Origin: a virus
Taxonomy: Duplodnaviria; Heunggongvirae; Uroviricota; Caudoviricetes
IMG/VR virus record: IMGVR_UViG_3300029647_000066
Length of the DNA stretch: 12,210 bases
Direction: 5' to 3' (one strand)
The notes beneath the pieces are model-generated. The model did not search any database and was not told the origin of the DNA. It saw only the letters and a list, made by a program, of their open reading frames with translations. The stretch's first letter is position 1. The number at the start of each line of letters is the position of its first letter. Below, in pieces: positions 2,987 to 11,725 of the stretch. The position numbers were made by a program, and so were the translations under genes.

Positions 2987-3288
2987 TGTCCTGTTCTCAT
3001 TCAGTTGTATTACTGAATAACGCCTTAAAAATCGCCGTTATGAAAAATGGCGATTTGTCTCTTATTCAGCTTGGTCTTGATAAAGAAAAACGCGAAATAA
3101 CTGAATCTGTTATCGCGATTTATCAGAACGAATTAAACCTCCTGTCTGATGTGGTCAATTTACTTGTGAAACGCGCTGTATTTAACAAGCAAATCTCCTC
3201 CGTGGATGAACTGACGAAATTAACGACAGAAATCGCCAGCTATTGCGCTGATGAATTTAAGAAGCTGAACGACAAAAGGAGCTGGTAA
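2986..3288 (+). CDS. Small hypothetical early protein (P2 orf81 position)
   Basis: ATG at 2986 seven nt after GGGGAGG. 100 aa. Stop overlaps the next start (TAATG). Confidence 0.6.
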   Translation: MSCSHSVVLLNNALKIAVMKNGDLSLIQLGLDKEKREITESVIAIYQNELNLLSDVVNLLVKRAVFNKQISSVDELTKLTTEIASYCADEFKKLNDKRSW

Positions 3289-3512
3289 TGCCGGACAACG
3301 TAGATTTTATTCAGGAACAACAGGCTGAATTACTGGAGCGCCAGATTAACGCGGCAAGGGTAAAACATTGCGGTGTTTCTGCGCTGGTTTGCGAAGAGTG
3401 TGACGCGCCAATACCTGCTGCCCGTCGTGCGGCTTATCCGTCAGCCACGCGTTGTGTTTCCTGTCAGTCAGTCTTTGAAGCAAAAAACAAACATTACCGG
3501 AGAATGGCATGA
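3288..3512 (+). CDS. TraR/DksA-family C4 zinc-finger protein (P2 orf82 position)
   Basis: 74 aa with CEEC...17 residues...CVSC, the C-x2-C-x17-C-x2-C spacing of TraR/DksA zinc fingers. AAAGGAG six nt upstream of the ATG. Translationally coupled on both sides. Confidence 0.75.
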   Translation: MPDNVDFIQEQQAELLERQINAARVKHCGVSALVCEECDAPIPAARRAAYPSATRCVSCQSVFEAKNKHYRRMA

Positions 3513-3784
3513 GCATTCGTATTGAAATTGGCGAACGTTATGTCGTTACCAGTGACAGCTTTCAGTTTATTCTCCACGAGAAAAAGAGAGCGGAAAGCGG
3601 TAAAAACGCCGGTCAGGAATGGCTGTCGGTGGTTGGTTATTACCCGAAATTAAGCCAGCTCGTTTCCGGCCTGATGCATCACGATATTCTGACCGGAAGC
3701 GCAAAGTCTTTTGCTGATTTAAACGCGCAGGTTGAGCAACTCAGCAGGCGTTGTTCAGAGGCTTTTGGCTCATATGGCCGTTAA
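3509..3784 (+). CDS. Small hypothetical early protein (P2 orf83 position)
   Basis: 91-aa ORF with ATG at 3509 overlapping the previous stop (ATGA). Its 3' end overlaps the gene A start by 11 nt. Confidence 0.6.
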   Translation: MSIRIEIGERYVVTSDSFQFILHEKKRAESGKNAGQEWLSVVGYYPKLSQLVSGLMHHDILTGSAKSFADLNAQVEQLSRRCSEAFGSYGR

Positions 3785-6059
3785 AGCCTCCGGGCGTTTT
3801 GTCCCTCCGTCAGCATTTGCCGCAGGCACCGGTAAGGCGTTTACCGGTGCTTATGCATGGAACGCGCCACGCGAGGCTGTCGGGCGCGAAAGACCCCTTA
3901 CACGTGACGAGATGCGTCAGGTGCAAGGTGTTTTATCCACGATTAACCGCCTGCCTTACTTTTTGCGCTCGCTGTTTACCTCACGCTATGACTACATCCG
4001 GCGCAATAAAAGCCCGGTGCACGGGTTTTATTTCCTCACATCCACTTTTCAGCGTCGTTTATGGCCGCGCATTGAGCGCGTGAATCAGCGCCATGAAATG
4101 AACACCGACGCGTCGTTGCTGTTTCTGGCAGAGCGTGACCATTATGCGCGTCTGCCGGGGGTGAATGACAAGGAACTGAAAAAGTTTGCCGCCCGTATCT
4201 CATCGCAGCTTTTCATGATGTATGAGGAACTCTGCGATGCATGGGTTGATGCACATGGCGAGAAAGAATCGCTGTTTACGGATGAGGCTCAGGCGCATCT
4301 GTATGGTCATGTTGCTGGCGCTGCACGAGCTTTCAATATTTCCCCTCTCTACTGGAAAAAATACCGTAAAGGACAGATGACCACGAGGCAGGCATATTCT
4401 GCCATTGCCCGTCTGTTTAACGATGAGTGGTGGATTCATCAGCTTAAAGGTCAGCGTATGCGCTGGCATGAGGCGTTACTGATTGCTGTCGGGGAGGTGA
4501 ATAAAGACCGTTCTCCTTATGCCAGTAAACATGCCATTCGTGATGTGCGTGCACGCCGCCAGGCAAATCTGGAATTTCTTAAATCGTGTGACCTTGAAAA
4601 CAGGGAAACCGGCGAGCGCATCGACCTTATCAGTAAGGTGATGGGCAGTATTTCTAATCCTGAAATTCGCCGGATGGAGCTGATGAACACCATTGCCGGT
4701 ATTGAGCGTTACGCCGCCGCAGAGGGTGATGTGGGGATGTTTATCACGCTGACCGCGCCGTCAAAGTATCACCCGACACGTCAGGTCGGAAAAGGCGAAA
4801 GTAAAACCGTCCAGCTAAATCACGGCTGGAACGATGAGGCATTTAATCCAAAGGATGCGCAGCGTTATCTCTGCCGTATCTGGAGCCTGATGCGCACGGC
4901 ATTCAAGGATAATGATTTACAGGTCTACGGTTTGCGTGTCGTCGAGCCACACCACGACGGAACGCCGCACTGGCATATGATGCTTTTTTGTAATCCACGC
5001 CAGCGTAACCAGATTATCGAAATCATGCGTCGCTATGCGCTCAAAGAGGATGGCGACGAAAGAGGAGCCGCGCGAAACCGTTTTCAGGCAAAACACCTTA
5101 ACCGGGGCGGTGCTGCGGGGTATATCGCGAAATACATCTCAAAAAACATCGATGGCTATGCACTGGATGGTCAGCTCGATAACGATACCGGCAGACCGCT
5201 GAAAGACACTGCTGCGGCTGTTACCGCATGGGCGTCAACGTGGCGCATCCCACAATTTAAAACGGTTGGTCTGCCGACAATGGGGGCTTACCGTGAACTA
5301 CGCAAATTGCCTCGCGGCGTCAGCATTGCTGATGAGTTTGACGAACGCGTTGAGGCTGCACGTGCCGCCGCAGACAGTGGTGATTTTGCGTTGTATATCA
5401 GCGCGCAGGGTGGGGCAAATGTTCCGCGTGATTGTCAGACTGTCAGGGTTGCCCGTAGTCCGTCGGATGACGTTAACGAGTACGAGGAAGAAGTCGAGAG
5501 AGTGGTCGGCATTTACGCGCCGCATCTCGGCGCGCGTCATATTCATATCACCAGAACGACGGACTGGCGCATTGTGCCGAAAGTTCCGGTCGTTGAGCCT
5601 TTGACTTTAAAAAGCGGCATCGCCGCGCCTCGGAGTCCTGTCAATAACTGTGGAAAGCTCACCGGTGGTGATACTTCGTTACCGGCTCCCACACCTTCTG
5701 AGCACGCCGCAGCCGTGCTTAATCTGGTTGATGACGGTGTTATCGAATGGAATGACCCGGAGGTCGTGAGGGCGCTCAGGGGCGCATTAAAACACGGCCT
5801 GAGAACACCAAACCGTCAGCAAAGAAACGGAAGCCCGTTAAAACCGAATGAAATAGCGCCATCGGCCAGGCTGACCCGGTCGGAGCGTATGCAAATTACC
5901 CGTATCCGCGTTGACCTTGCTCAGAACGGTATCAGGCCGCAGCGATGGGAGCTTGAGGCGCTGGCGCGTGGCGCGACCGTAAATTATGACGGGAAAAAAT
6001 TCACGTATCCGGTCGCTGATGAGTGGCCGGGATTCTCAACAGTAATGGAGTGGAAATGA
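3774..6059 (+). CDS. A: Rolling-circle replication initiator endonuclease, P2 gene A family
   Basis: ORF track starts at 3732, but the internal ATG at 3774 (MAVKASGRF) gives 761 aa and avoids a long overlap with the upstream gene. HUH-type motif in GLRVVEPHHDGTPHWHMMLF and paired-tyrosine motif in AAGYIAKYISKNIDGY are hallmarks of phiX174/P2 A-type initiators. Confidence 0.9.
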   Translation: MAVKASGRFVPPSAFAAGTGKAFTGAYAWNAPREAVGRERPLTRDEMRQVQGVLSTINRLPYFLRSLFTSRYDYIRRNKSPVHGFYFLTSTFQRRLWPRIERVNQRHEMNTDASLLFLAERDHYARLPGVNDKELKKFAARISSQLFMMYEELCDAWVDAHGEKESLFTDEAQAHLYGHVAGAARAFNISPLYWKKYRKGQMTTRQAYSAIARLFNDEWWIHQLKGQRMRWHEALLIAVGEVNKDRSPYASKHAIRDVRARRQANLEFLKSCDLENRETGERIDLISKVMGSISNPEIRRMELMNTIAGIERYAAAEGDVGMFITLTAPSKYHPTRQVGKGESKTVQLNHGWNDEAFNPKDAQRYLCRIWSLMRTAFKDNDLQVYGLRVVEPHHDGTPHWHMMLFCNPRQRNQIIEIMRRYALKEDGDERGAARNRFQAKHLNRGGAAGYIAKYISKNIDGYALDGQLDNDTGRPLKDTAAAVTAWASTWRIPQFKTVGLPTMGAYRELRKLPRGVSIADEFDERVEAARAAADSGDFALYISAQGGANVPRDCQTVRVARSPSDDVNEYEEEVERVVGIYAPHLGARHIHITRTTDWRIVPKVPVVEPLTLKSGIAAPRSPVNNCGKLTGGDTSLPAPTPSEHAAAVLNLVDDGVIEWNDPEVVRALRGALKHGLRTPNRQQRNGSPLKPNEIAPSARLTRSERMQITRIRVDLAQNGIRPQRWELEALARGATVNYDGKKFTYPVADEWPGFSTVMEWK

Positions 6060-6511
6060 TGGCAAAAATTCACGAGGTAAAGCTGCACGCAAAATATTTT
6101 GACCTTGTGCTGGAAGGAAAGAAACGCGCAGAGTTTCGGAAAAATGACCGTAATTATGAGCGCGGGGACACGTTGATTTTGCATGAATGGGTGCAGGGTG
6201 TGTATACGGGGCGAAAGGTTGAAGCCCGGATAACAGATGTTACTGACTTGTCAGACTGGCTGGAAGATTATGTCTTGCTAAGTATTGAGCTGCTTAATAC
6301 AGGCGCATATGAGTTTGTGAACTGGAAAGAACTTAGTGAGCGTGGTCTGGTATTCAGAATTAATCATGAAATTATGCATCAGCTCGGCCTTGCTGTTGTG
6401 TATGAACCAGAGACGGGGATGTCTGGCGGGGCAGTGGTTGGTGCGGATGGGATATGGAACTATTCAGATGAACAGGTGGAGCGTGCACAGCAAAACGGGT
6501 GGCTTGGATAA
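6056..6511 (+). CDS. ASCH / DUF3850-like domain protein
   Basis: ORF track starts at a GTG at 6023; the ATG at 6056 overlaps the A stop (ATGA) and follows GGAG. N-terminal KIHEVKLHAKYFDLVLEGKKRAEFRKNDRNYERGDTLILHEW fits the DUF3850/ASCH pattern common in phage genomes. C-terminal half uncharacterised. Confidence 0.7.
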   Translation: MMAKIHEVKLHAKYFDLVLEGKKRAEFRKNDRNYERGDTLILHEWVQGVYTGRKVEARITDVTDLSDWLEDYVLLSIELLNTGAYEFVNWKELSERGLVFRINHEIMHQLGLAVVYEPETGMSGGAVVGADGIWNYSDEQVERAQQNGWLG

Positions 6512-6717
6512 TGCACAGAATACCAGGCGAGATACCGCAGCATAAAACTAAAAATATCAAGCTGATGGCCATTGTTCACCGTCTACAGCAGATTATGGTC
6601 AACGAAAATCTGACGCCCGATGAGCTGGTCGGGTGTGCCGAAATAGTCCGGGATAATTACGTATGGCTTAACTATATCGGTCAGCCCAGCGCTGCACCGC
6701 CACCACGCAGACGATAG
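6511..6717 (+). CDS. Small hypothetical protein
   Basis: ORF track starts at a GTG at 6499; the ATG at 6511 overlaps the previous stop (TAATG). 68 aa, no recognisable domain. Last ORF before the compositional shift to AT-rich DNA. Confidence 0.4.
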   Translation: MHRIPGEIPQHKTKNIKLMAIVHRLQQIMVNENLTPDELVGCAEIVRDNYVWLNYIGQPSAAPPPRRR

Positions 6718-7025
6718 AGAACGCAGCCAGCTCAGGATTGGCGGGGGATAGAATAACGAGCATAGTGATGCGATTAGACAAACAGACTGACTGGTACACT
6801 TAGGATGGTTATAGTGGTTTCTAAGTGCTTTAGCGATACATCTGGTGGACTGTTTTACCAACCTCAGAGTTAGCTGAATTTTTAACAAAATACCATTTTG
6901 ATAGATTTGCCTAATTTATTAATTAAACTATACTGGACTTATACACAGTGTTCTGTTAATTGTTAGGTTGGTAAGATATTGTGAGGAGGTGATTACTATC
7001 TTGGCATCAATCAAGTGGAGGTTAA

Positions 7026-7262
7026 ATGATGAATATATTTGAACGTATTATAGGTAAAGCTGCTATTGAAAAGGAAAGAGAACTGGCGAGGAGGCTTGAA
7101 GCATCTGGAACAAACACTGTTGAGGTGGTAGGTCGAGGCGCGATTATCACGTCTAAAGAAGACTTGGCAAGCTCAGATACAGTAAAATTGATGAAAATTA
7201 AAGCAAGAAAAATAGTTTCTGAGCAGGTAAAGCAAGAAGAAAAAATGGCTAAAGGGAATTAA
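7026..7262 (+). CDS. Small charged hypothetical protein, first gene of the rightward cargo operon
   Basis: 78-aa ORF, Lys/Glu-rich and probably helical. GGAGG at 7017-7021 four nt before the ATG. AT-rich codon usage unlike the backbone. The next gene starts 3 nt after its stop. Confidence 0.6.
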   Translation: MMNIFERIIGKAAIEKERELARRLEASGTNTVEVVGRGAIITSKEDLASSDTVKLMKIKARKIVSEQVKQEEKMAKGN

Positions 7263-7264
7263 TA

Positions 7265-8026
7265 ATGTTTGCTTTATTAATTATTCCATTACTTGTGAGT
7301 GGTTATATTGTATTAACCACTCATCCTTATCATTTCTATAGATTACACCGTTATGATGGGCAGTTGTTATATATGAAGTCAGCCGCCTTTGGTCTGTGGT
7401 GTTTTATATGGACATTGATTATAGCTTACTTAATAAAATGGATATGTCCTAGCTTCCATCCTGTCACGATGGTTCGGGAACAATTAGATCTCAAACTTAG
7501 TGACAATGGTACTGAAAGAATCATAGGATGGATGATTTTACTTTCATGTGGAACGATATTTTTGGCTTGGATATGGAGTGTCGGTGCTAGATATTTGGTT
7601 ATATATAGAGCTAAAATTATAAATTATATCCAAGGGGTAAAGGCTGCCAATATTGATTATGAGAATCTTGTCATGCTAAGGATGAGGCAAGAGCTTATTA
7701 ATGATAATCCAATGGATGAAATATTTTTTGATTCGTTAGTTGATAGACGTTCAATACTTATTACGTTGCAAAATAAAAAGACATATGTAGGAATTGTTAA
7801 CGCATTAGGTGAGCCTAACGAGAAAGAAGGACCTAACCAGTATGTTTCAATCTATCCTATTATCTCTGGGTATAGAGATAAGGATTCATTGAAAGTAATC
7901 TTGGTGAATGAATATAGAGAGCTTGAGGATGCTGATACTAGTATCATCTTTCCACTAAAAGAAATTTCGCAAGTTTCTTGGTTTGATATGGATATTCATA
8001 AAATAGTTGAAAATAATAAGGTGTAG
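7265..8026 (+). CDS. Predicted integral membrane protein (about 3 TM helices N-terminal, soluble C-terminal domain), function unknown
   Basis: 253-aa ORF with AAGGGA seven nt before the ATG. Hydrophobic segments FALLIIPLLVSGYIVL, AAFGLWCFIWTLIIAYLIKWI and IIGWMILLSCGTIFLAWIWSVGA, followed by a hydrophilic domain of about 130 aa. AT-rich. Ends just before a hairpin shared with the convergent operon. Confidence 0.7.
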   Translation: MFALLIIPLLVSGYIVLTTHPYHFYRLHRYDGQLLYMKSAAFGLWCFIWTLIIAYLIKWICPSFHPVTMVREQLDLKLSDNGTERIIGWMILLSCGTIFLAWIWSVGARYLVIYRAKIINYIQGVKAANIDYENLVMLRMRQELINDNPMDEIFFDSLVDRRSILITLQNKKTYVGIVNALGEPNEKEGPNQYVSIYPIISGYRDKDSLKVILVNEYRELEDADTSIIFPLKEISQVSWFDMDIHKIVENNKV

Positions 8027-8029
8027 TAA

Positions 8030-8054
8030 ATGGTCACCTATAAAAGGTGACCAT
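8030..8054. terminator. Bidirectional hairpin terminator between the convergent cargo operons
   Basis: Perfect 10-bp inverted repeat ATGGTCACCT (8030-8039) and AGGTGACCAT (8045-8054) with a 5-nt loop. It sits between the stop of the + gene (8026) and the stop of the - gene (8060), with T-rich sequence downstream on the + strand and A-rich sequence upstream. Confidence 0.6.
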
Positions 8055-8059
8055 AATGC

Positions 8060-10324
8060 TTATTTTTGACGAATCCTGATTTTTGGTTGTTCACGAACAA
8101 CAATATCAGTTTCTTTCCAACCAAGATTATTTATTTCAACCTCGGCTTCGTTGTAGACTGTAGTAGAATTGGCAAGAGATCTTAACGTAATAGCCAATAC
8201 AGCACGTTGAGGTGAAGATAGAGGCTCTTGCTCTGCTCGTCTCTGAACATCAAGTTTAAGTCTCCATTGCTCCCCATTTATACCTTGCGGAAATTGTTTT
8301 CTATAAACTTTGACTGGAGACCATTTGAAGCCATTTTCTATCAGTACCTTTTCAAATAATTCACTCTTTTCTTTTATTTGTGGAATTTTTCCGCTATGTA
8401 TCCATTTAGCGTTAACTGGATCATAAGTGTAAGTCCCGAATGACACATCCACATTAGAACGGCAATATTCAGATGGGTAGTCATAATCAAGCGGTGGAGA
8501 ATAAACGAGTGTCATAATAATTTCACCTGTGAATTTTCCATCCTCAGTACGTAATGACTGTGGTATTACAAATGGCGTTCTACTGAATTCAATACCTTCT
8601 CGGGTATCTATTTCAAATAGAAATGTAATCTCATTTTTATTGCAACCAATAATATCATTTATATGATCGCTTGGGCGTCCAAATCCTTGATAATTAAACG
8701 CATAATGCTCCGTTTTGGCTGGTGAGTTTTTTAACGCAGAATGAATTAATAGTGCCTTGATACGTTCAGGCGATGGTGAAATAGAACCATTAACATCTAG
8801 TTCATGCCACAGTGATGCCGCTAAACTTGAGATTAACGGTGCTGATAAACTTGTGCCAATACTTTCGCAAAGAGCATTGTCCTCGCCAATAGCTATGATT
8901 CCGGTATGTTCACAGTTTAATTTACTGTCACAATTACCTCCAAAGTGATTTATCTCTGGTTTGGGTATAAAGGCTGGGCCGGGACCTCTTCTAGAAAAAG
9001 ATGAAGGTTCAAATCTTTTGACCACAGAGTCAGACGATTCTAAATGGGCAACTGAGCCAACAGTTAATGAACGAACAGAATCTGCGGGGGCTGATATTCT
9101 GTCATGCCCACCTAATTCTTGAGGAGGCCAGGTTCGTTGAGGATCATAAATGTAGTTGCCGGATGCTACGACGAAAAGACAATCATGCTCATCATGAAGT
9201 GCATTTAAAAAATGCCCCAATTCAGAGAAGCTGTCTTCAGAACATGGGGATTGACAACCTAATGACAGATTCCATACACGTACTTCTGGATAGGTGGTCA
9301 CAGCCTCTCGGATAGCTTTCATTAATTGTGGCAATTTGAGCGTACCATCTTTGGGAAAGGCTGCAACATCAACAATTTCAGCTTGGCATTGAGGAAAACC
9401 AGCATAGTTATTCAACCATCTTCCATTAATTGCTAAACTTGCAACCATGTTCCCATGAGAATAGTCGTGTTCTCCTTTTACTAAATCTAAACTATCCCAA
9501 ATCCATGGCCTAAGTATGTTGTTATTGGGATCGACTCCGCTATCTATAATTCCGAGTAGTGGATAATGTTTATCCTCTTGAGGTAAGGGAAAATCATCTA
9601 GGTCTAGAGTTTCAGCAGGAATATATTGCGATACTGTATGAGTAAGACCAAATGTTGGCATAGGTTCTAATTTTCGTATGCCAATAAAACTTGCCAGTTG
9701 GGCGATGTTATCATTCCCTTTTACTTCATATATACTCAAATCTGAACTGATATCATACTTTTTGGGTTTTTGTATTCCTAGTTCATCTGCAAATTCCATT
9801 AATTCTTTGTCGATACTGCGGTTAGTTGTTCTATCTTTATGGTCAAAGAGTTTCAGAAGAAAACTATCTGATTTATTTTTATCTATAACATCATGGTTAA
9901 GACTAAAAGGTTCGATCTTTTCAATTACAGCAATATGTACTGTCCCATTATGAGAATTAGTGCTATTTTCAATTTTTTTGCGAAGTTGTGCTAACCCTTT
10001 TTCAGTAACACTTATAAGTAATTCTCCAAAATTATCACTGCCTATTACGGGACATGTATTATCACCTAATAGGCTTGATGGGCGATGTGACTTAGCAAGA
10101 GCTTTTTCATGAAGAGTAACTCTAGCCACCGCCGGTATATTGGGCCATTTTTTAAATGAGCTCTGGAAAAAATTTTTAACGTCATCGACTTCTTGTTTGA
10201 GTCTATTTTTTAGACTAGTTGTTACTGTTCGGATAGGTTGTTTCTTTCCGAAATTATATGTTTTTTCAGTAAAATCTTGAGGTGTCGCCTCAATTATTTT
10301 TATTGGTCTTTCTTTGTTACTCAT
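8060..10324 (-). CDS. Subtilisin-like serine peptidase (S8 family), predicted cytoplasmic, with N- and C-terminal extension domains
   Basis: 754-aa ORF. S8 catalytic motifs in canonical order: Asp in LLGIIDSGVD (about residue 261), His in DYSHGNMVASLA (about 290), oxyanion Asn in FVVASGNY (about 390), Ser in GTSLSAPLISSLAASL (about 492). No N-terminal hydrophobic signal sequence. Its ATG overlaps the stop of the upstream ATPase gene (ATGA at 10321-10324). Confidence 0.9.
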   Translation of the reverse strand: MSNKERPIKIIEATPQDFTEKTYNFGKKQPIRTVTTSLKNRLKQEVDDVKNFFQSSFKKWPNIPAVARVTLHEKALAKSHRPSSLLGDNTCPVIGSDNFGELLISVTEKGLAQLRKKIENSTNSHNGTVHIAVIEKIEPFSLNHDVIDKNKSDSFLLKLFDHKDRTTNRSIDKELMEFADELGIQKPKKYDISSDLSIYEVKGNDNIAQLASFIGIRKLEPMPTFGLTHTVSQYIPAETLDLDDFPLPQEDKHYPLLGIIDSGVDPNNNILRPWIWDSLDLVKGEHDYSHGNMVASLAINGRWLNNYAGFPQCQAEIVDVAAFPKDGTLKLPQLMKAIREAVTTYPEVRVWNLSLGCQSPCSEDSFSELGHFLNALHDEHDCLFVVASGNYIYDPQRTWPPQELGGHDRISAPADSVRSLTVGSVAHLESSDSVVKRFEPSSFSRRGPGPAFIPKPEINHFGGNCDSKLNCEHTGIIAIGEDNALCESIGTSLSAPLISSLAASLWHELDVNGSISPSPERIKALLIHSALKNSPAKTEHYAFNYQGFGRPSDHINDIIGCNKNEITFLFEIDTREGIEFSRTPFVIPQSLRTEDGKFTGEIIMTLVYSPPLDYDYPSEYCRSNVDVSFGTYTYDPVNAKWIHSGKIPQIKEKSELFEKVLIENGFKWSPVKVYRKQFPQGINGEQWRLKLDVQRRAEQEPLSSPQRAVLAITLRSLANSTTVYNEAEVEINNLGWKETDIVVREQPKIRIRQK

Positions 10325-11484
10325 AATATCTCTCTATAGTTCTTAGTTAGCCTTGACACTTTAGCATTTGAAAGCCCTAGTATTTTTGCTATCTTTCGTA
10401 TTGTAAATCTTTTGGGATTGTATTCTCTGAGAGTGGTCACAATCTTTATAAGTAAATTATCTTCTTCATCAAATGTAACTCCCTTCGCTTCTAAGATAGC
10501 CTCGACTAAAAATCGGGTATCGATTTGTTTATTATTGTAAACCAGAGCATGTCGCTCAGATCTTAAGCAGCATTGTTCTATAAATGAGCAGTTTAGCCCT
10601 GATGATATTTCCGCAAGGTCATCAACAAAATCGTCATATGTAGCTTTTATGTTTGAATATTGTTCAAATAGTTGTTTTCTGACTTCAAAATCAGGCAATC
10701 CAATAGATATTCTATACTCAAAGCGCCTCCAAACTGCGCTATCTAGAAGATTTTCATGATTACTTGCAGCAATCAATATTGTTTCTTCAGGTAGATTGTC
10801 AATATTTTGCAATAAAGAAACCACCACCCTCTTCAGTTCACCTAACTCATGCTGATCATCTCTAGCCTTTGCTAGAGAATCTAGTTCATCTAGAAATAAA
10901 ACACATGGTGCTTTACTTGCATACTCAAATAGCTGCCTGATATTTTTAGAAGTAGACCCCAGATATGATGAGACTAAGGAGTCACATCTTGCAGTAAGAA
11001 GCGGTAAATTTAGACAGGATGCAATATATTTTGATGTCAAGGTTTTACCACAACCTGGTGGCCCATATAAAATCATAGAGGATGTCACGCCAAGACCGGC
11101 ATCCTTTAATTCTTTAGCTCGTTCAGTGAAAGTCAAAAATTCTTTAATTTTTTTCAGAGTGCTATCTTTCAACAATGGGAGTTGAATTTCAGAAGACGGT
11201 TGAGTTACGTCTGCTAAATCAAATTTAGTTTCTTTATCTACAGGTAATGTATCAAGACGTTCAAAAATAGGTGATGTACTGCGTGATACTTTCTGCAAGT
11301 TAAACGTGTTTTTATCTTGAATACTACCTCTAATGGCTGAAGCAAGCTCAGGCAGCCCCATAGAATCATAGGAACGCGCGAGTTTCGAAGCCTGCCGAAC
11401 AAAAGCAACTTTATCCCCTTTGAGTCCAAGACTGATAAGCTGCGAAAGTATCTCGTTTGTGGTCATTTGTGATACAAACCTCAT
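10321..11484 (-). CDS. AAA+ ATPase (classic-clade AAA domain) with C-terminal HTH-like tail
   Basis: 387-aa ORF. Walker A in LYGPPGCGKT (about residue 147), Walker B in CVLFLDELD (about 199-200), second-region-of-homology-like segment in AASNHENLLDSAVWRRFEYRISIGLP. C-terminal RKIAKILGLSNAKVSRLTKNY resembles a helix-turn-helix. First gene of the leftward cargo operon; start could instead be the second ATG at 11466. Confidence 0.9.
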   Translation of the reverse strand: MRFVSQMTTNEILSQLISLGLKGDKVAFVRQASKLARSYDSMGLPELASAIRGSIQDKNTFNLQKVSRSTSPIFERLDTLPVDKETKFDLADVTQPSSEIQLPLLKDSTLKKIKEFLTFTERAKELKDAGLGVTSSMILYGPPGCGKTLTSKYIASCLNLPLLTARCDSLVSSYLGSTSKNIRQLFEYASKAPCVLFLDELDSLAKARDDQHELGELKRVVVSLLQNIDNLPEETILIAASNHENLLDSAVWRRFEYRISIGLPDFEVRKQLFEQYSNIKATYDDFVDDLAEISSGLNCSFIEQCCLRSERHALVYNNKQIDTRFLVEAILEAKGVTFDEEDNLLIKIVTTLREYNPKRFTIRKIAKILGLSNAKVSRLTKNYREIL

Positions 11485-11725
11485 TAATCTGTTGTCTAAA
11501 TGGCTTATAGGTGAGACAAATTTCTATTTTAATGTAGTTTATATGTATTTTGGTGAAACGAACACTATGTTTTACATAAATCTTTCAGGTTTGGAGTTCT
11601 TGGAGGGCATAGAGTTGCATCAATTTGCATTCTAATTAGACTTTTTTATTGCTATCGTATTCTACATGTGACTAGGTCTGCCCTTCCTGATGCGTTTGCA
11701 TTAAAACCTCCCCATGAAGCGGGCG

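Follow-up and report, generated by a model that had tools for sequence, protein, structure and literature searches.

Two adjacent genes in the window, the whole 12,210 nt stretch of viral DNA that was analyzed (IMG/VR record IMGVR_UViG_3300029647_000066), form an obligate pair that is a widespread, self-contained module without a name. In this lineage, the pair has long been co-inherited with the neighboring IetAS operon as a fixed four-gene cassette; more distant IetAS operons and more distant pairs exist without each other. The initial annotation had left a choice between an independent module and an accessory of the adjacent system, and both descriptions apply, each at its own scale: the pair is self-contained across Proteobacteria and co-inherited with IetAS in this lineage. 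We infer, tentatively and with rather less than even confidence, that the pair is a phage-exclusion or abortive module, undescribed and self-contained, that acts at the membrane and is here locked to IetAS.

Two coupled genes in the cargo hotspot of a P2-like prophage

Both ORFs of the initial annotation were found on the + strand, the small partner gene at 7026..7262 (78 aa) and the membrane protein gene at 7265..8026 (253 aa; three transmembrane (TM) helices and a cytoplasmic Sm-like domain). The stop codon of the former and the ATG of the latter are separated by 2 nt (7263-7264), not by the 3 nt given originally. Each gene has its own Shine-Dalgarno sequence, as had been noted: GGAGG (7017..7021, + strand, read from the sequence) lies 4 nt 5´ of the first ATG, with GGAG(G) kept 5´ of the small-gene start codon in 7/7 aligned cassettes, and AAGGG is found 5´ of the second ATG. 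A consensus scan of the 308 nt AT-rich spacer 5´ of the small gene gave a weak candidate sigma-70-like promoter on the + strand (TTGCCT-16-TATACT, 6907..6934, 9/12 matches), in a region where the number of promoter-like sites is not above that in shuffles; the TATACT block and its flanking bases are kept in the Enterobacter copy. The 33 nt convergent spacer at the other end of the operon is filled by a hairpin with a 10 bp stem and a 5 nt loop (8030..8054), likely a bidirectional terminator shared by the pair and ietS, and perfect hairpins of differing sequence occupy the 24-39 nt spacers of 7/7 cassettes compared. An Rfam scan of the window returned no RNA family.

The GC content is ~0.49-0.56 in the phage replication genes but only 0.33-0.39 over 6750-11500, in agreement with the AT-rich island described initially, and the composition of the pair region is foreign. 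The locus belongs to a P2-like prophage and is its AT-rich cargo hotspot between gpA and portal. The defense-hotspot setting that had been suggested for the pair was thus borne out: it occupies the P2 gpA-to-gpQ hotspot of Rousset 2022, which experiments have established as a reservoir of anti-phage systems (PMC9122126). Table S5 of that study lists the locus as ‘hypothetical’ entries only, outside the systems tested there (PMC9122126). The locus is absent from the DefensePredictor supplements, and the protein accessions and PHROG ids are not mentioned in the full texts searched.

An obligate pair outside named families

An exhaustive profile search for the membrane protein (E ≤ 1e-3) gave a family of 2,600 cluster representatives (50% identity clusters), and 241 homologues were present among candidates gathered by word-indexed search. 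A homologous gene encoding 60-90 aa, with a VVGRGT hairpin motif, lies directly 5´ of the membrane gene in 47/57 species-level loci, and the stop and start codons of the two genes are 0-20 nt apart or overlapping in nearly all loci, in keeping with the tightly coupled operon first proposed. No stray copies of the small gene were found elsewhere in ~1.3 Mb of loci; the small and membrane genes are an obligate pair. The dN/dS values relative to the Enterobacter copy are 0.049 for the small gene and 0.048 for the membrane gene. Because dN/dS is ~0.05, homologues are many and the small gene is repeatedly 5´ of the membrane gene, both ORFs are genuine genes, kept by strong purifying selection, rather than chance ORFs. 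The pair occurs across Proteobacteria and in temperate phages, and in E. coli it has a rare accessory distribution (12 and 17 of 5,426 genomes).

The initial impression that neither protein belongs to a nameable family held up in all searches. Pfam, NCBIfam and PADLOC gave no match for either protein, among 40 distant relatives of the membrane protein or among 24 relatives of the small protein, and PHROGs gave only families of ‘unknown function’, the membrane protein being PHROG 3630 (‘unknown’). PADLOC-DB v2.0.0, which includes PDC candidates, Rst_2TM_1TM_TIR and Cap15-type effectors, returned nothing at E ≤ 1 for the pair or for the diverged pairs of phages ST15-OXA48phi14.1, SEN5 and phiES15; within this search, which covers six family members (the window pair plus the three diverged pairs), no homology to validated defense proteins was found. 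Sequence-profile searches of the PDB gave nothing meaningful. Neither protein of the pair has a Pfam domain of any kind; of the P2 genes in this slot, Old would be expected to show ATPase and Toprim domains.

A predicted Sm-like barrel on three TM helices

Hydrophobic segments of the 253 aa protein (Kyte-Doolittle) agree with the AlphaFold2 helices in placing three TM helices within 7265..7588 (+ strand): TM1 at aa 1-21 (7265-7327), TM2 at aa 39-62 (7379-7450) and TM3 at aa 85-108 (7517-7588). The remainder is soluble, and the originally proposed layout of three N-terminal helices and a soluble C-terminus is the one we recovered. Hydropathy and positive-inside counts give an estimated topology with the N-terminus out and the C-terminus in. 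Residues M1, L5, P8, S12, G13, L27, G32, Q33, L35, Y36, K38, G43 and S94 are invariant, and the cytoplasmic loop RLHRYDGQLLYxK between TM1 and TM2 (aa 26-38, + strand) is conserved. Conservation is highest in the cytoplasmic or intramembrane parts, not the periplasmic ones, and the TM2-TM3 periplasmic loop varies more than any other part, in length as well as in sequence. Since TM1 (P8, S12, G13) and the juxtamembrane loop are near-invariant, the sequences suggest a role for the TM part beyond anchoring.

The C-terminal region is predicted to form an Sm/Hfq/LSm/WYL-like β-barrel of five to six strands (7745..7987, + strand, aa ~161-241) with the invariant loops EPNE...GPN and SGYRxKD. In the AlphaFold2 model, which is of moderate quality (pLDDT 79.7, pTM 0.55), this is a strongly bent five-stranded antiparallel β-barrel that is superposable on Sm/Hfq. 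Neither the protein nor its 40 distant relatives gave a hit to the Pfam LSM/Hfq models (E ≤ 1) that would indicate Sm1/Sm2 sequence membership, and a search of viral structures in BFVD gave weak partial Sm-like matches only, none at E ≤ 0.001. MscS has the same plan of three TM helices and then a cytoplasmic Sm-like β domain, from which it builds a heptameric channel; MscS homology over TM3 and the β-domain core was rejected (hhalign probability 0.04%). BrxR, CapW, DriD and PafBC also have WYL/Sm-like sensor domains, but these are soluble HTH transcription factors, whereas the barrel here is placed on three TM helices, has no DNA-binding domain and leaves the Pfam WYL model unmatched.

The small protein is charged, as had been recognized, with 16 K+R and 12 D+E in 78 residues. 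It has no hydrophobic segment (Kyte-Doolittle) and is predicted to be cytoplasmic, with a helix, a β-hairpin (VVGRGA, aa 32-42) and a long Lys/Glu-rich helix in that order. The swapped-hairpin antitoxin fold of AbrB/MazE (SpoVT_AbrB) was found neither with Pfam nor in the predicted structure.

A four-gene cassette with IetAS

The ATPase-protease operon on which the pair was said to converge is the known system IetAS (PADLOC). On the - strand, ietS (8060..10324) encodes an S8 serine protease (full-length PADLOC IetS match, 1.1e-273; Pfam Peptidase_S8) and ietA (10321..11484) an AAA ATPase (PADLOC IetA, 9.1e-132; Pfam AAA, 1.1e-31), with a 4 nt overlap between the two genes. These adjacent AAA ATPase and S8 subtilase genes (8060-11484) account for the IetAS membership; neither protein of the pair is a recognized IetAS component (no PADLOC hit at E ≤ 1).

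In the clade that shares at least 54% identity with this copy, 8/9 genera examined have the pair linked to IetS-IetA, with the small and membrane genes facing ietS and then ietA across a 24-39 nt hairpin spacer in all eight. The holders are E. coli, Enterobacter, Citrobacter, Scandinavium, Yersinia, Rahnella, a Salmonella/Citrobacter island and Pectobacterium. The four cassette proteins diverge in step, from 89/88/90/84 down to 55/54/58/54% identity, and gpA of the carrier phage is not in step with them (34-79%). The cassette is found in three contexts (the P2 hotspot, an island with AlpA and a P4-type integrase, and an IS3-flanked chromosomal site), and the identical 12 E. coli genomes carry both the pair and IetAS.

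These features favor the view that the pair is a functional part of a four-gene IetAS variant resembling ietHAS. The pair would then be required for, or modulate, the defense that this IetAS subtype provides: the IetS protease could, for instance, have the membrane protein as its effector or anchor, or the small protein as its substrate or regulator. There is a precedent in ietHAS, where IetAS recruited an essential extra gene, a helicase (PMC13069673), and the sub-lineage described here is likewise stably tied to extra genes. In addition, other cargo of the P2 hotspot turns over rapidly (PMC13586616), and therefore the persistence of the block suggests selection. We nevertheless regard this explanation as unlikely. 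Two genes suffice for B. cereus ietAS in B. subtilis and for the plasmid toxin-antitoxin (TA) system (PMC13069673), and neither the plasmid IetS homologues at ≤44% identity nor other E. coli P2-hotspot AAA+S8 loci are accompanied by the pair. Conversely, IetAS is beside the pair in only 3/57 species-level loci and missing from the other 54/57, and Arsenophonus, the exception among the nine genera, retains the pair intact (69% identity) but has no IetAS within 8 kb. The extra genes here also differ from those of ietHAS in encoding a membrane and a small protein rather than a helicase, and in forming a separate convergent operon that is far commoner without IetAS. The convergent orientation and the terminator between the operons make them separate transcription units, and adjacent defense systems can co-transfer simply as a small island.

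Phage cargo sites and chromosomal sites

Three diverged versions of the pair are present in the P2 hotspot: the clade considered here, that of Klebsiella phage ST15-OXA48phi14.1 (21% identity, beside bSEFIR) and that of Salmonella SEN4/5. In Cronobacter phage phiES15 and E. coli lambdoid prophages, the pair is flanked by int and attP; copies also lie at the edge of a Klebsiella prophage, terminally in the genomes of Pseudomonas phages, and adjoining a satellite-like element in Legionella. Diverged copies are thus placed recurrently and independently in phage cargo sites. Known defenses adjoining family members are IetAS, bSEFIR and type III CBASS, one member being directly 3´ of a type III CBASS operon. 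The two SMODS hits in a survey of 21 diverse loci both come from a single Asticcacaulis locus.

Homologues mainly in non-mobile core-genome contexts with a housekeeping role had been named as what would speak against a defense role, and the contexts point both ways: the phage cargo sites recur, but the pair also has a fixed chromosomal site. In the Pseudomonas luteola/oryzihabitans group, its chromosomal position is a single syntenic, non-mobile one next to transport and nitrate-regulation genes, and its inheritance there is apparently vertical. A PP2C-kinase gene was seen beside the Pseudomonas copy and probably accounts for the ‘PD-T4-6’ hits of a neighborhood scan that gave no per-locus detail. 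Outside Enterobacterales and Legionella, the neighbors are mostly ordinary, variable chromosomal genes. The commonest neighbor families across the 21 diverse loci are MFS transporters, two-component systems and TonB receptors; integrases are found in only 2/21 of these loci, 0/19 diverse non-enterobacterial loci have an integrase within five genes, and no third partner gene recurs. These ordinary neighborhoods and the fixed Pseudomonas site count against a defense reading.

They leave some room for the view, which we hold to be improbable, that the pair is not primarily anti-phage and is either a TA-like addiction module that stabilizes its element, with the small upstream antitoxin neutralizing a membrane toxin, or an acquired device for membrane stress or ion homeostasis. 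The layout of a small 5´ gene translationally coupled to a larger 3´ gene fits type II-like TA logic, and the neighboring IetAS was first described as a plasmid-stabilizing TA system (PMC13069673). The syntenic Pseudomonas copy, the heterogeneous non-mobile neighborhoods in other Proteobacteria and the three-TM plus Sm-like plan at the core of MscS channels are further points in its favor. On the other side, the pair has been captured repeatedly by different phage hotspots dominated by defense cargo, MscS shows no sequence relationship at the hhalign probability given above, and no Pfam or NCBIfam TA family was matched. Many hotspot TA modules prove to be abortive-infection systems, and this alternative therefore overlaps with the explanation that we prefer.

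A possible membrane-acting phage-exclusion or abortive module

The reading that we prefer, that of a self-contained phage-exclusion or abortive module, would operate as follows. The pair is carried as accessory cargo by temperate phages and other mobile elements, and its action at the inner membrane would most likely shield the lysogen from other phages. The 253 aa protein would hold its Sm-like barrel in the cytoplasm just beneath the membrane, where the barrels may oligomerize and the invariant EPNE/SGYRxKD loops may sense a signal; the 18-21 TM helices of the assembly could then rearrange and breach or depolarize the membrane, with an abortive outcome. The small protein would act in the cytoplasm as a regulator or antitoxin-like partner, either holding the membrane protein in an inactive state or passing the signal on to it. 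In the lineage considered here, the module has been joined tail-to-tail to IetAS, and phages and islands exchange the four-gene cassette as one unit. Sm-like domains typically form hexameric or heptameric rings, with loops that bind nucleic acids or small ligands, and it is from the predicted fold that we extrapolate to rings, bound ligands and a pore.

An abortive-infection or TA-like action of the pair may be proposed, and several known systems are close to it in some respects. The neighboring IetAS acts by abortive infection. Cap15-type effectors of CBASS/Pycsar have the same plan of N-terminal TM helices followed by a compact cytoplasmic β-barrel, and by analogy the barrel could sense a ligand and drive oligomerization and membrane disruption. 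However, there are three TM helices here and two there, the barrel here is Sm-like, no PADLOC effector was matched, and a cyclase is absent from 20/21 diverse loci, an obligate small partner being present instead. Lambda RexAB, Kiwa KwaAB and mycobacteriophage Butters gp30/gp31 are likewise prophage two-gene cassettes of an integral membrane and a soluble protein, lysogen-expressed and placed as morons or in hotspots. Neither sequence nor fold was found to link the pair to them, and it differs in that the partner is only 60-90 aa and encoded first, and in that the membrane protein bears a cytoplasmic sensor-like domain of its own.

A non-abortive superinfection exclusion, in which the membrane protein blocks entry of the incoming phage genome at the inner membrane like other prophage-encoded exclusion proteins (an Sm-like ring might capture the leading DNA end, or the injection channel might be interfered with), would suit the moron positions typical of exclusion genes (int-attP and the P2 tin/old slot), the predicted nucleic-acid-binding-type fold directly beneath the inner membrane and a TM2-TM3 loop as variable as expected on meeting diverse phage components, but is quite unlikely given that the best-conserved parts are cytoplasmic or intramembrane, that chromosomal non-prophage copies exist in Pseudomonas and that an obligate cytoplasmic partner is, to our knowledge, unusual among exclusion proteins (T4 Imm/Sp, P22 SieA, HK97 gp15). 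The variable periplasmic loop would fit a surface-exclusion mechanism equally well, a point against the reading that we prefer.

If the phage-exclusion or abortive module that we propose is indeed defensive, a large and wholly unannotated family, whose clusters number in the thousands in Proteobacteria and temperate phages, would join the catalog of such systems. We know of no description so far of a membrane-anchored Sm-like effector plan in phage defense. The boldest form of the proposal, for which we see only a slim chance, is a new anti-phage family (~2,600 clusters at 50% identity) in which a membrane-tethered Sm-like ring would sense a nucleic acid or nucleotide cue on the inner side of the membrane and open or collapse the membrane under the control of its tiny partner, together with a four-gene composite in Enterobacterales in which the module and IetAS cooperate; if true, this would offer an initial way into how IetAS kills or which target it has. 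Should the pair not be defensive, it would still be a conserved membrane/Sm-domain module repeatedly acquired by phages. A co-evolving membrane module beside a toxic protease suggests a substrate/effector relationship or a synergistic pair.

A two-gene membrane module in the cargo slot of a P2-like prophage

ORF calls, the GC profile and Pfam matches identify the window as the left arm of a P2-like prophage, in which an integrase gene (167-1162, - strand) is followed by a C-type repressor, cox and small early genes, then by the replication endonuclease gpA (3732-6059) and a DUF3850/ASCH protein (6023-6511, + strand). A portal gene fragment at the right window end closes an AT-rich block with a GC content of 0.33-0.39, compared with 0.49-0.56 in gpA, in agreement with the AT-rich island of the initial annotation. 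Between gpA and gpQ (portal), this block holds four genes: a pair on the + strand, consisting of a small gene (7026-7262, 78 aa) and a membrane-protein gene (7265-8026, 253 aa), and, convergent on it, genes for an S8 peptidase (8060-10324, - strand) and an AAA ATPase (10321-11484, - strand). Full-length PADLOC matches assign the latter two to IetS (E = 1.1e-273) and IetA (E = 9.1e-132), and the neighboring "ATPase-protease operon" is thus the known IetAS system. ORF calling recovered both genes of the pair as initially placed, though separated by 2 nt rather than 3 nt; GGAGG lies 5´ of the first ATG and, together with the start position, is conserved in homologous four-gene cassettes.

In P2 itself, the gpA-gpQ slot is occupied by old and tin. 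The slot has been established experimentally as a hotspot for anti-phage cargo in P2-like phages (Rousset et al., PMC9122126), and the sole catalogue entry for the present locus describes its genes as "hypothetical" (Rousset supplementary Table S5). By kind, the pair is a membrane module of two genes that sits in a prophage defense hotspot.

We also noted several features of the surrounding genes. The ietA and ietS ORFs overlap by 4 nt in an ATGA-type coupling, and IetA is 381 aa in RefSeq, compared with 387 aa for the longest ORF. The 6023-6511 ORF, which overlaps the end of gpA, is a DUF3850/ASCH and DUF7415 fusion (PHROG 1812); since "DUF3850/ASCH" is often the first gene in many different P2 hotspot arrangements (Rousset Table S5), it may be phage backbone rather than cargo. 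Between this gene and the AT-rich spacer lies a 72-aa ORF (6499-6717, + strand; PHROG 11386, unknown function), a "hypothetical protein" in the RefSeq annotation of Escherichia coli strain ABWA45. The early region of the ABWA45 prophage includes an IS30 insertion (3108-4259 of locus L001) that is absent from the window; the rest is near-identical save for the C repressor and cox, which are only ~74% identical, indicating a mosaic immunity region.

Both proteins belong to conserved families without a name

Searches of Pfam, NCBIfam and PADLOC at E ≤ 1 gave nothing for either protein save one sub-threshold match to the TM region, and in PHROGs the pair falls in two "unknown function" families, in line with the initial failure to name a family. 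No test that was run placed the pair in a known family, and a description of the pair's family was not found in the searchable literature. For the membrane protein, a word-indexed search returned 241 homologues, and an exhaustive profile search returned 2,600 50%-identity cluster representatives at E ≤ 1e-3 and 1,263 at E ≤ 1e-10. Almost all members listed are stand-alone proteins of ~230-340 aa, bar some shorter fragments, and 40 distant members likewise lacked a Pfam or NCBIfam model. Both genes of the pair are under strong purifying selection, with dN/dS values of 0.049 and 0.048 relative to the Enterobacter copy (dS above 1).

The three predicted N-terminal TM helices correspond to hydropathy segments at aa 1-21, 39-62 and 85-108, and positive-inside counts, taken for the window protein and as a mean of 41 relatives, indicate an external N-terminus and locate the C-terminal 145 residues, the soluble part of the initial annotation, in the cytoplasm. 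Conservation is centered on TM1 (MxALLIIPLLVSG, with P8, S12 and G13 invariant), the first cytoplasmic loop (RLHRYDGQLLYxK) and the C-terminal domain (K172, Y174, G176, E183-P184-x-E186, P198, S201-G202-Y203-R204-x-K206-D207 and S238-W239-F240); the periplasmic loop and the linker that follows TM3 are variable in both length and sequence. The MscS core shares this plan of three TM helices and a subsequent Sm-like domain, but profile comparison with E. coli MscS showed no homology (probability 0.04%), and we regard the resemblance as an architectural analogy only.

A single-sequence search with the small protein detected close relatives only. Inspection of 57 species-level loci, in turn, revealed an ORF of 60-90 aa directly upstream, on the same strand, of almost every membrane-gene homologue, with a common pattern of N-terminal amphipathic stretch, helix, hairpin (motif (V/I)(V/x)G(R/x)G(T/A/G)-h-x-h) and C-terminal helix. 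A profile of these ORFs retrieved 89 proteins, nearly all of them unnamed and short (35-109 aa; three have 120-151 aa). With an HMM, 47 of the 57 loci had the small gene as the immediate upstream neighbor, and no match fell elsewhere in the fetched DNA. The remaining 10 loci are truncated, pseudogenised or most divergent members, and several divergent loci without an HMM match keep an upstream ORF of similar size.

The pair is co-inherited with IetAS in one clade

The initial annotation had considered either an independent module or an accessory of the adjacent system; the pair is autonomous at family scale and co-inherited with IetAS in the window's clade only. Within this clade (at least 54% identity to the window protein), the arrangement in which the small and membrane genes converge on ietS and ietA is kept in eight of nine genera examined. 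The cassette was found in P2-like prophages of E. coli, Enterobacter, Citrobacter, Scandinavium, Yersinia and Rahnella, in a Salmonella/Citrobacter island with AlpA and a P4-type integrase, at a Pectobacterium chromosomal site beside an IS3-family transposase, and in five IMG/VR viral contigs; in E. coli, the same 12 genomes hold both halves. Percent identities to the window copy for the small protein, membrane protein, IetS, IetA and, where present, carrier-phage gpA are 89, 88, 90, 84 and 78 in Enterobacter (L002), 72, 76, 78, 65 and 48 in Pectobacterium (L084), 52, 59, 63, 55 and 34 in Yersinia (L086), 56, 55, 59, 57 and 79 in Scandinavium (L005), 54, 55, 60, 55 and 59 in Salmonella (L070), and 55, 54, 58, 54 and 60 in Rahnella (L088). 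The four proteins diverge in step and gpA does not track them; the cassette is thus transferred from one backbone to another as a single block. The convergent spacer (8027-8059 in the window) is always 24-39 nt in the window and these six loci, with a perfect hairpin whose sequence differs each time. Retention of the hairpin despite the changed sequence points to a structurally conserved terminator, probably bidirectional.

The link is clade-specific. Plasmid IetS homologues at ≤44% identity had no pair nearby, other E. coli P2-hotspot AAA+S8 loci lack the pair (Rousset Table S5), IetAS is present at only 3 of the 57 species-level pair loci, and Arsenophonus carries an intact, 69%-identical pair without IetAS. 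Given this autonomy across the family, a role merely as an IetAS accessory fails as a general explanation. IetAS is known to function with two genes, as an abortive system that a phage protein triggers. [quoted passage not shown] The long co-inheritance is real, and unusual for a hotspot whose cargo is otherwise shuffled quickly (PMC13586616); it gives a minor but appreciable probability that the pair and IetAS cooperate in the window's lineage. Together, the four genes possibly constitute a multi-gene IetAS variant.

The pair recurs at phage cargo sites and at a syntenic chromosomal site of Pseudomonas

In Enterobacterales and phage records, the pair is typical mobile cargo. The same P2 hotspot is home to diverged pairs in Klebsiella phage ST15-OXA48phi14.1 (21% identity) and Salmonella phages SEN4 and SEN5; in ST15-OXA48phi14.1 (L081, 4783-7492), downstream of the pair lie a 69-aa ORF and a bSEFIR defense gene (PADLOC, 6.9e-103). 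This is a second case of the pair sharing the hotspot with a known system, here with every gene in the same orientation. Cronobacter phage phiES15 carries a version of 45-48% identity between int and attP, and E. coli lambdoid prophages have it at the corresponding position (17 of 5,426 complete genomes). Pairs also adjoin a primase/terminase satellite-like element in Legionella and lie at the genome ends of Pseudomonas phages vB_Pae_U5 and U6. In Asticcacaulis sp. BYS171W (L099, 3086-9032), a distant pair lies 457 nt downstream, on the same strand, of a type III CBASS operon (AAA/TRIP13-like gene, Cap8, bacHORMA, SMODS, DUF6602 and a second SMODS); an imuB/dnaE2 mutagenesis cassette follows the pair.

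Another version is found at a Klebsiella prophage edge. In K. pneumoniae (L065-L069, 8285-8962), a 225-aa gene with a weak match to the PADLOC candidate PDC-S64/DUF3644 (E = 6.5e-07) separates the pair from the prophage integrase and could likewise be cargo of this moron locus. In one Klebsiella genome (L066, 621-4819), the pair locus adjoins a second integrase-bearing island encoding SMC_N/AAA_23, MComp1 and CTD1 proteins, a predicted conflict system, and the site thus acts as a compound defense hotspot. In the endosymbionts Arsenophonus and Phlomobacter (L006, L042, L051, L052 and L055), several membrane-gene copies are frameshifted or fragmented and others in the same genus are intact, suggesting ongoing decay of prophage cargo.

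The neighborhood survey also revealed a syntenic, non-mobile site in several species of the Pseudomonas luteola/duriflava/oryzihabitans group (including L074-L077 and L098), flanked by DUF4142/MFS genes on one side and an aminotransferase or GGDEF gene on the other, with penicillin amidase and NasS/NasT-like genes close by. No mobile genes were found nearby, and these copies look vertically inherited. A scan of 126 neighbors from 21 diverse loci found no recurrent partner gene, and integrases were near the pair at two of these loci, both enterobacterial. The family is an accessory module repeatedly captured by phages, and not confined to mobile elements.

Possible function of the pair

The initial observation is confirmed, and phage exclusion offers the simplest account of the sites in which the pair travels as cargo. 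Going beyond fold, topology and genomic association, we infer a mechanism in which the membrane protein would act on the membrane as an effector, equipped with a cytoplasmic sensor-like domain of its own, and the small protein would regulate it, a proposal held with somewhat less than even confidence. It draws on the highly conserved TM1 and juxtamembrane loop, the predicted cytoplasmic Sm/WYL-like barrel with invariant loops, and the obligate small cytoplasmic partner, whose gene comes first and is coupled in translation. Such a plan would be similar in principle to Cap15-type CBASS effectors and RexAB-like pairs. The pair could instead serve outside defense, as a toxin-antitoxin system or in membrane homeostasis, which seems improbable to us, or could block injection without abortive infection, which we consider more doubtful still.

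Part of the family resides in ordinary chromosomal contexts. The pair is a good and cheap experimental target, and its relation to IetAS is the most informative new result.
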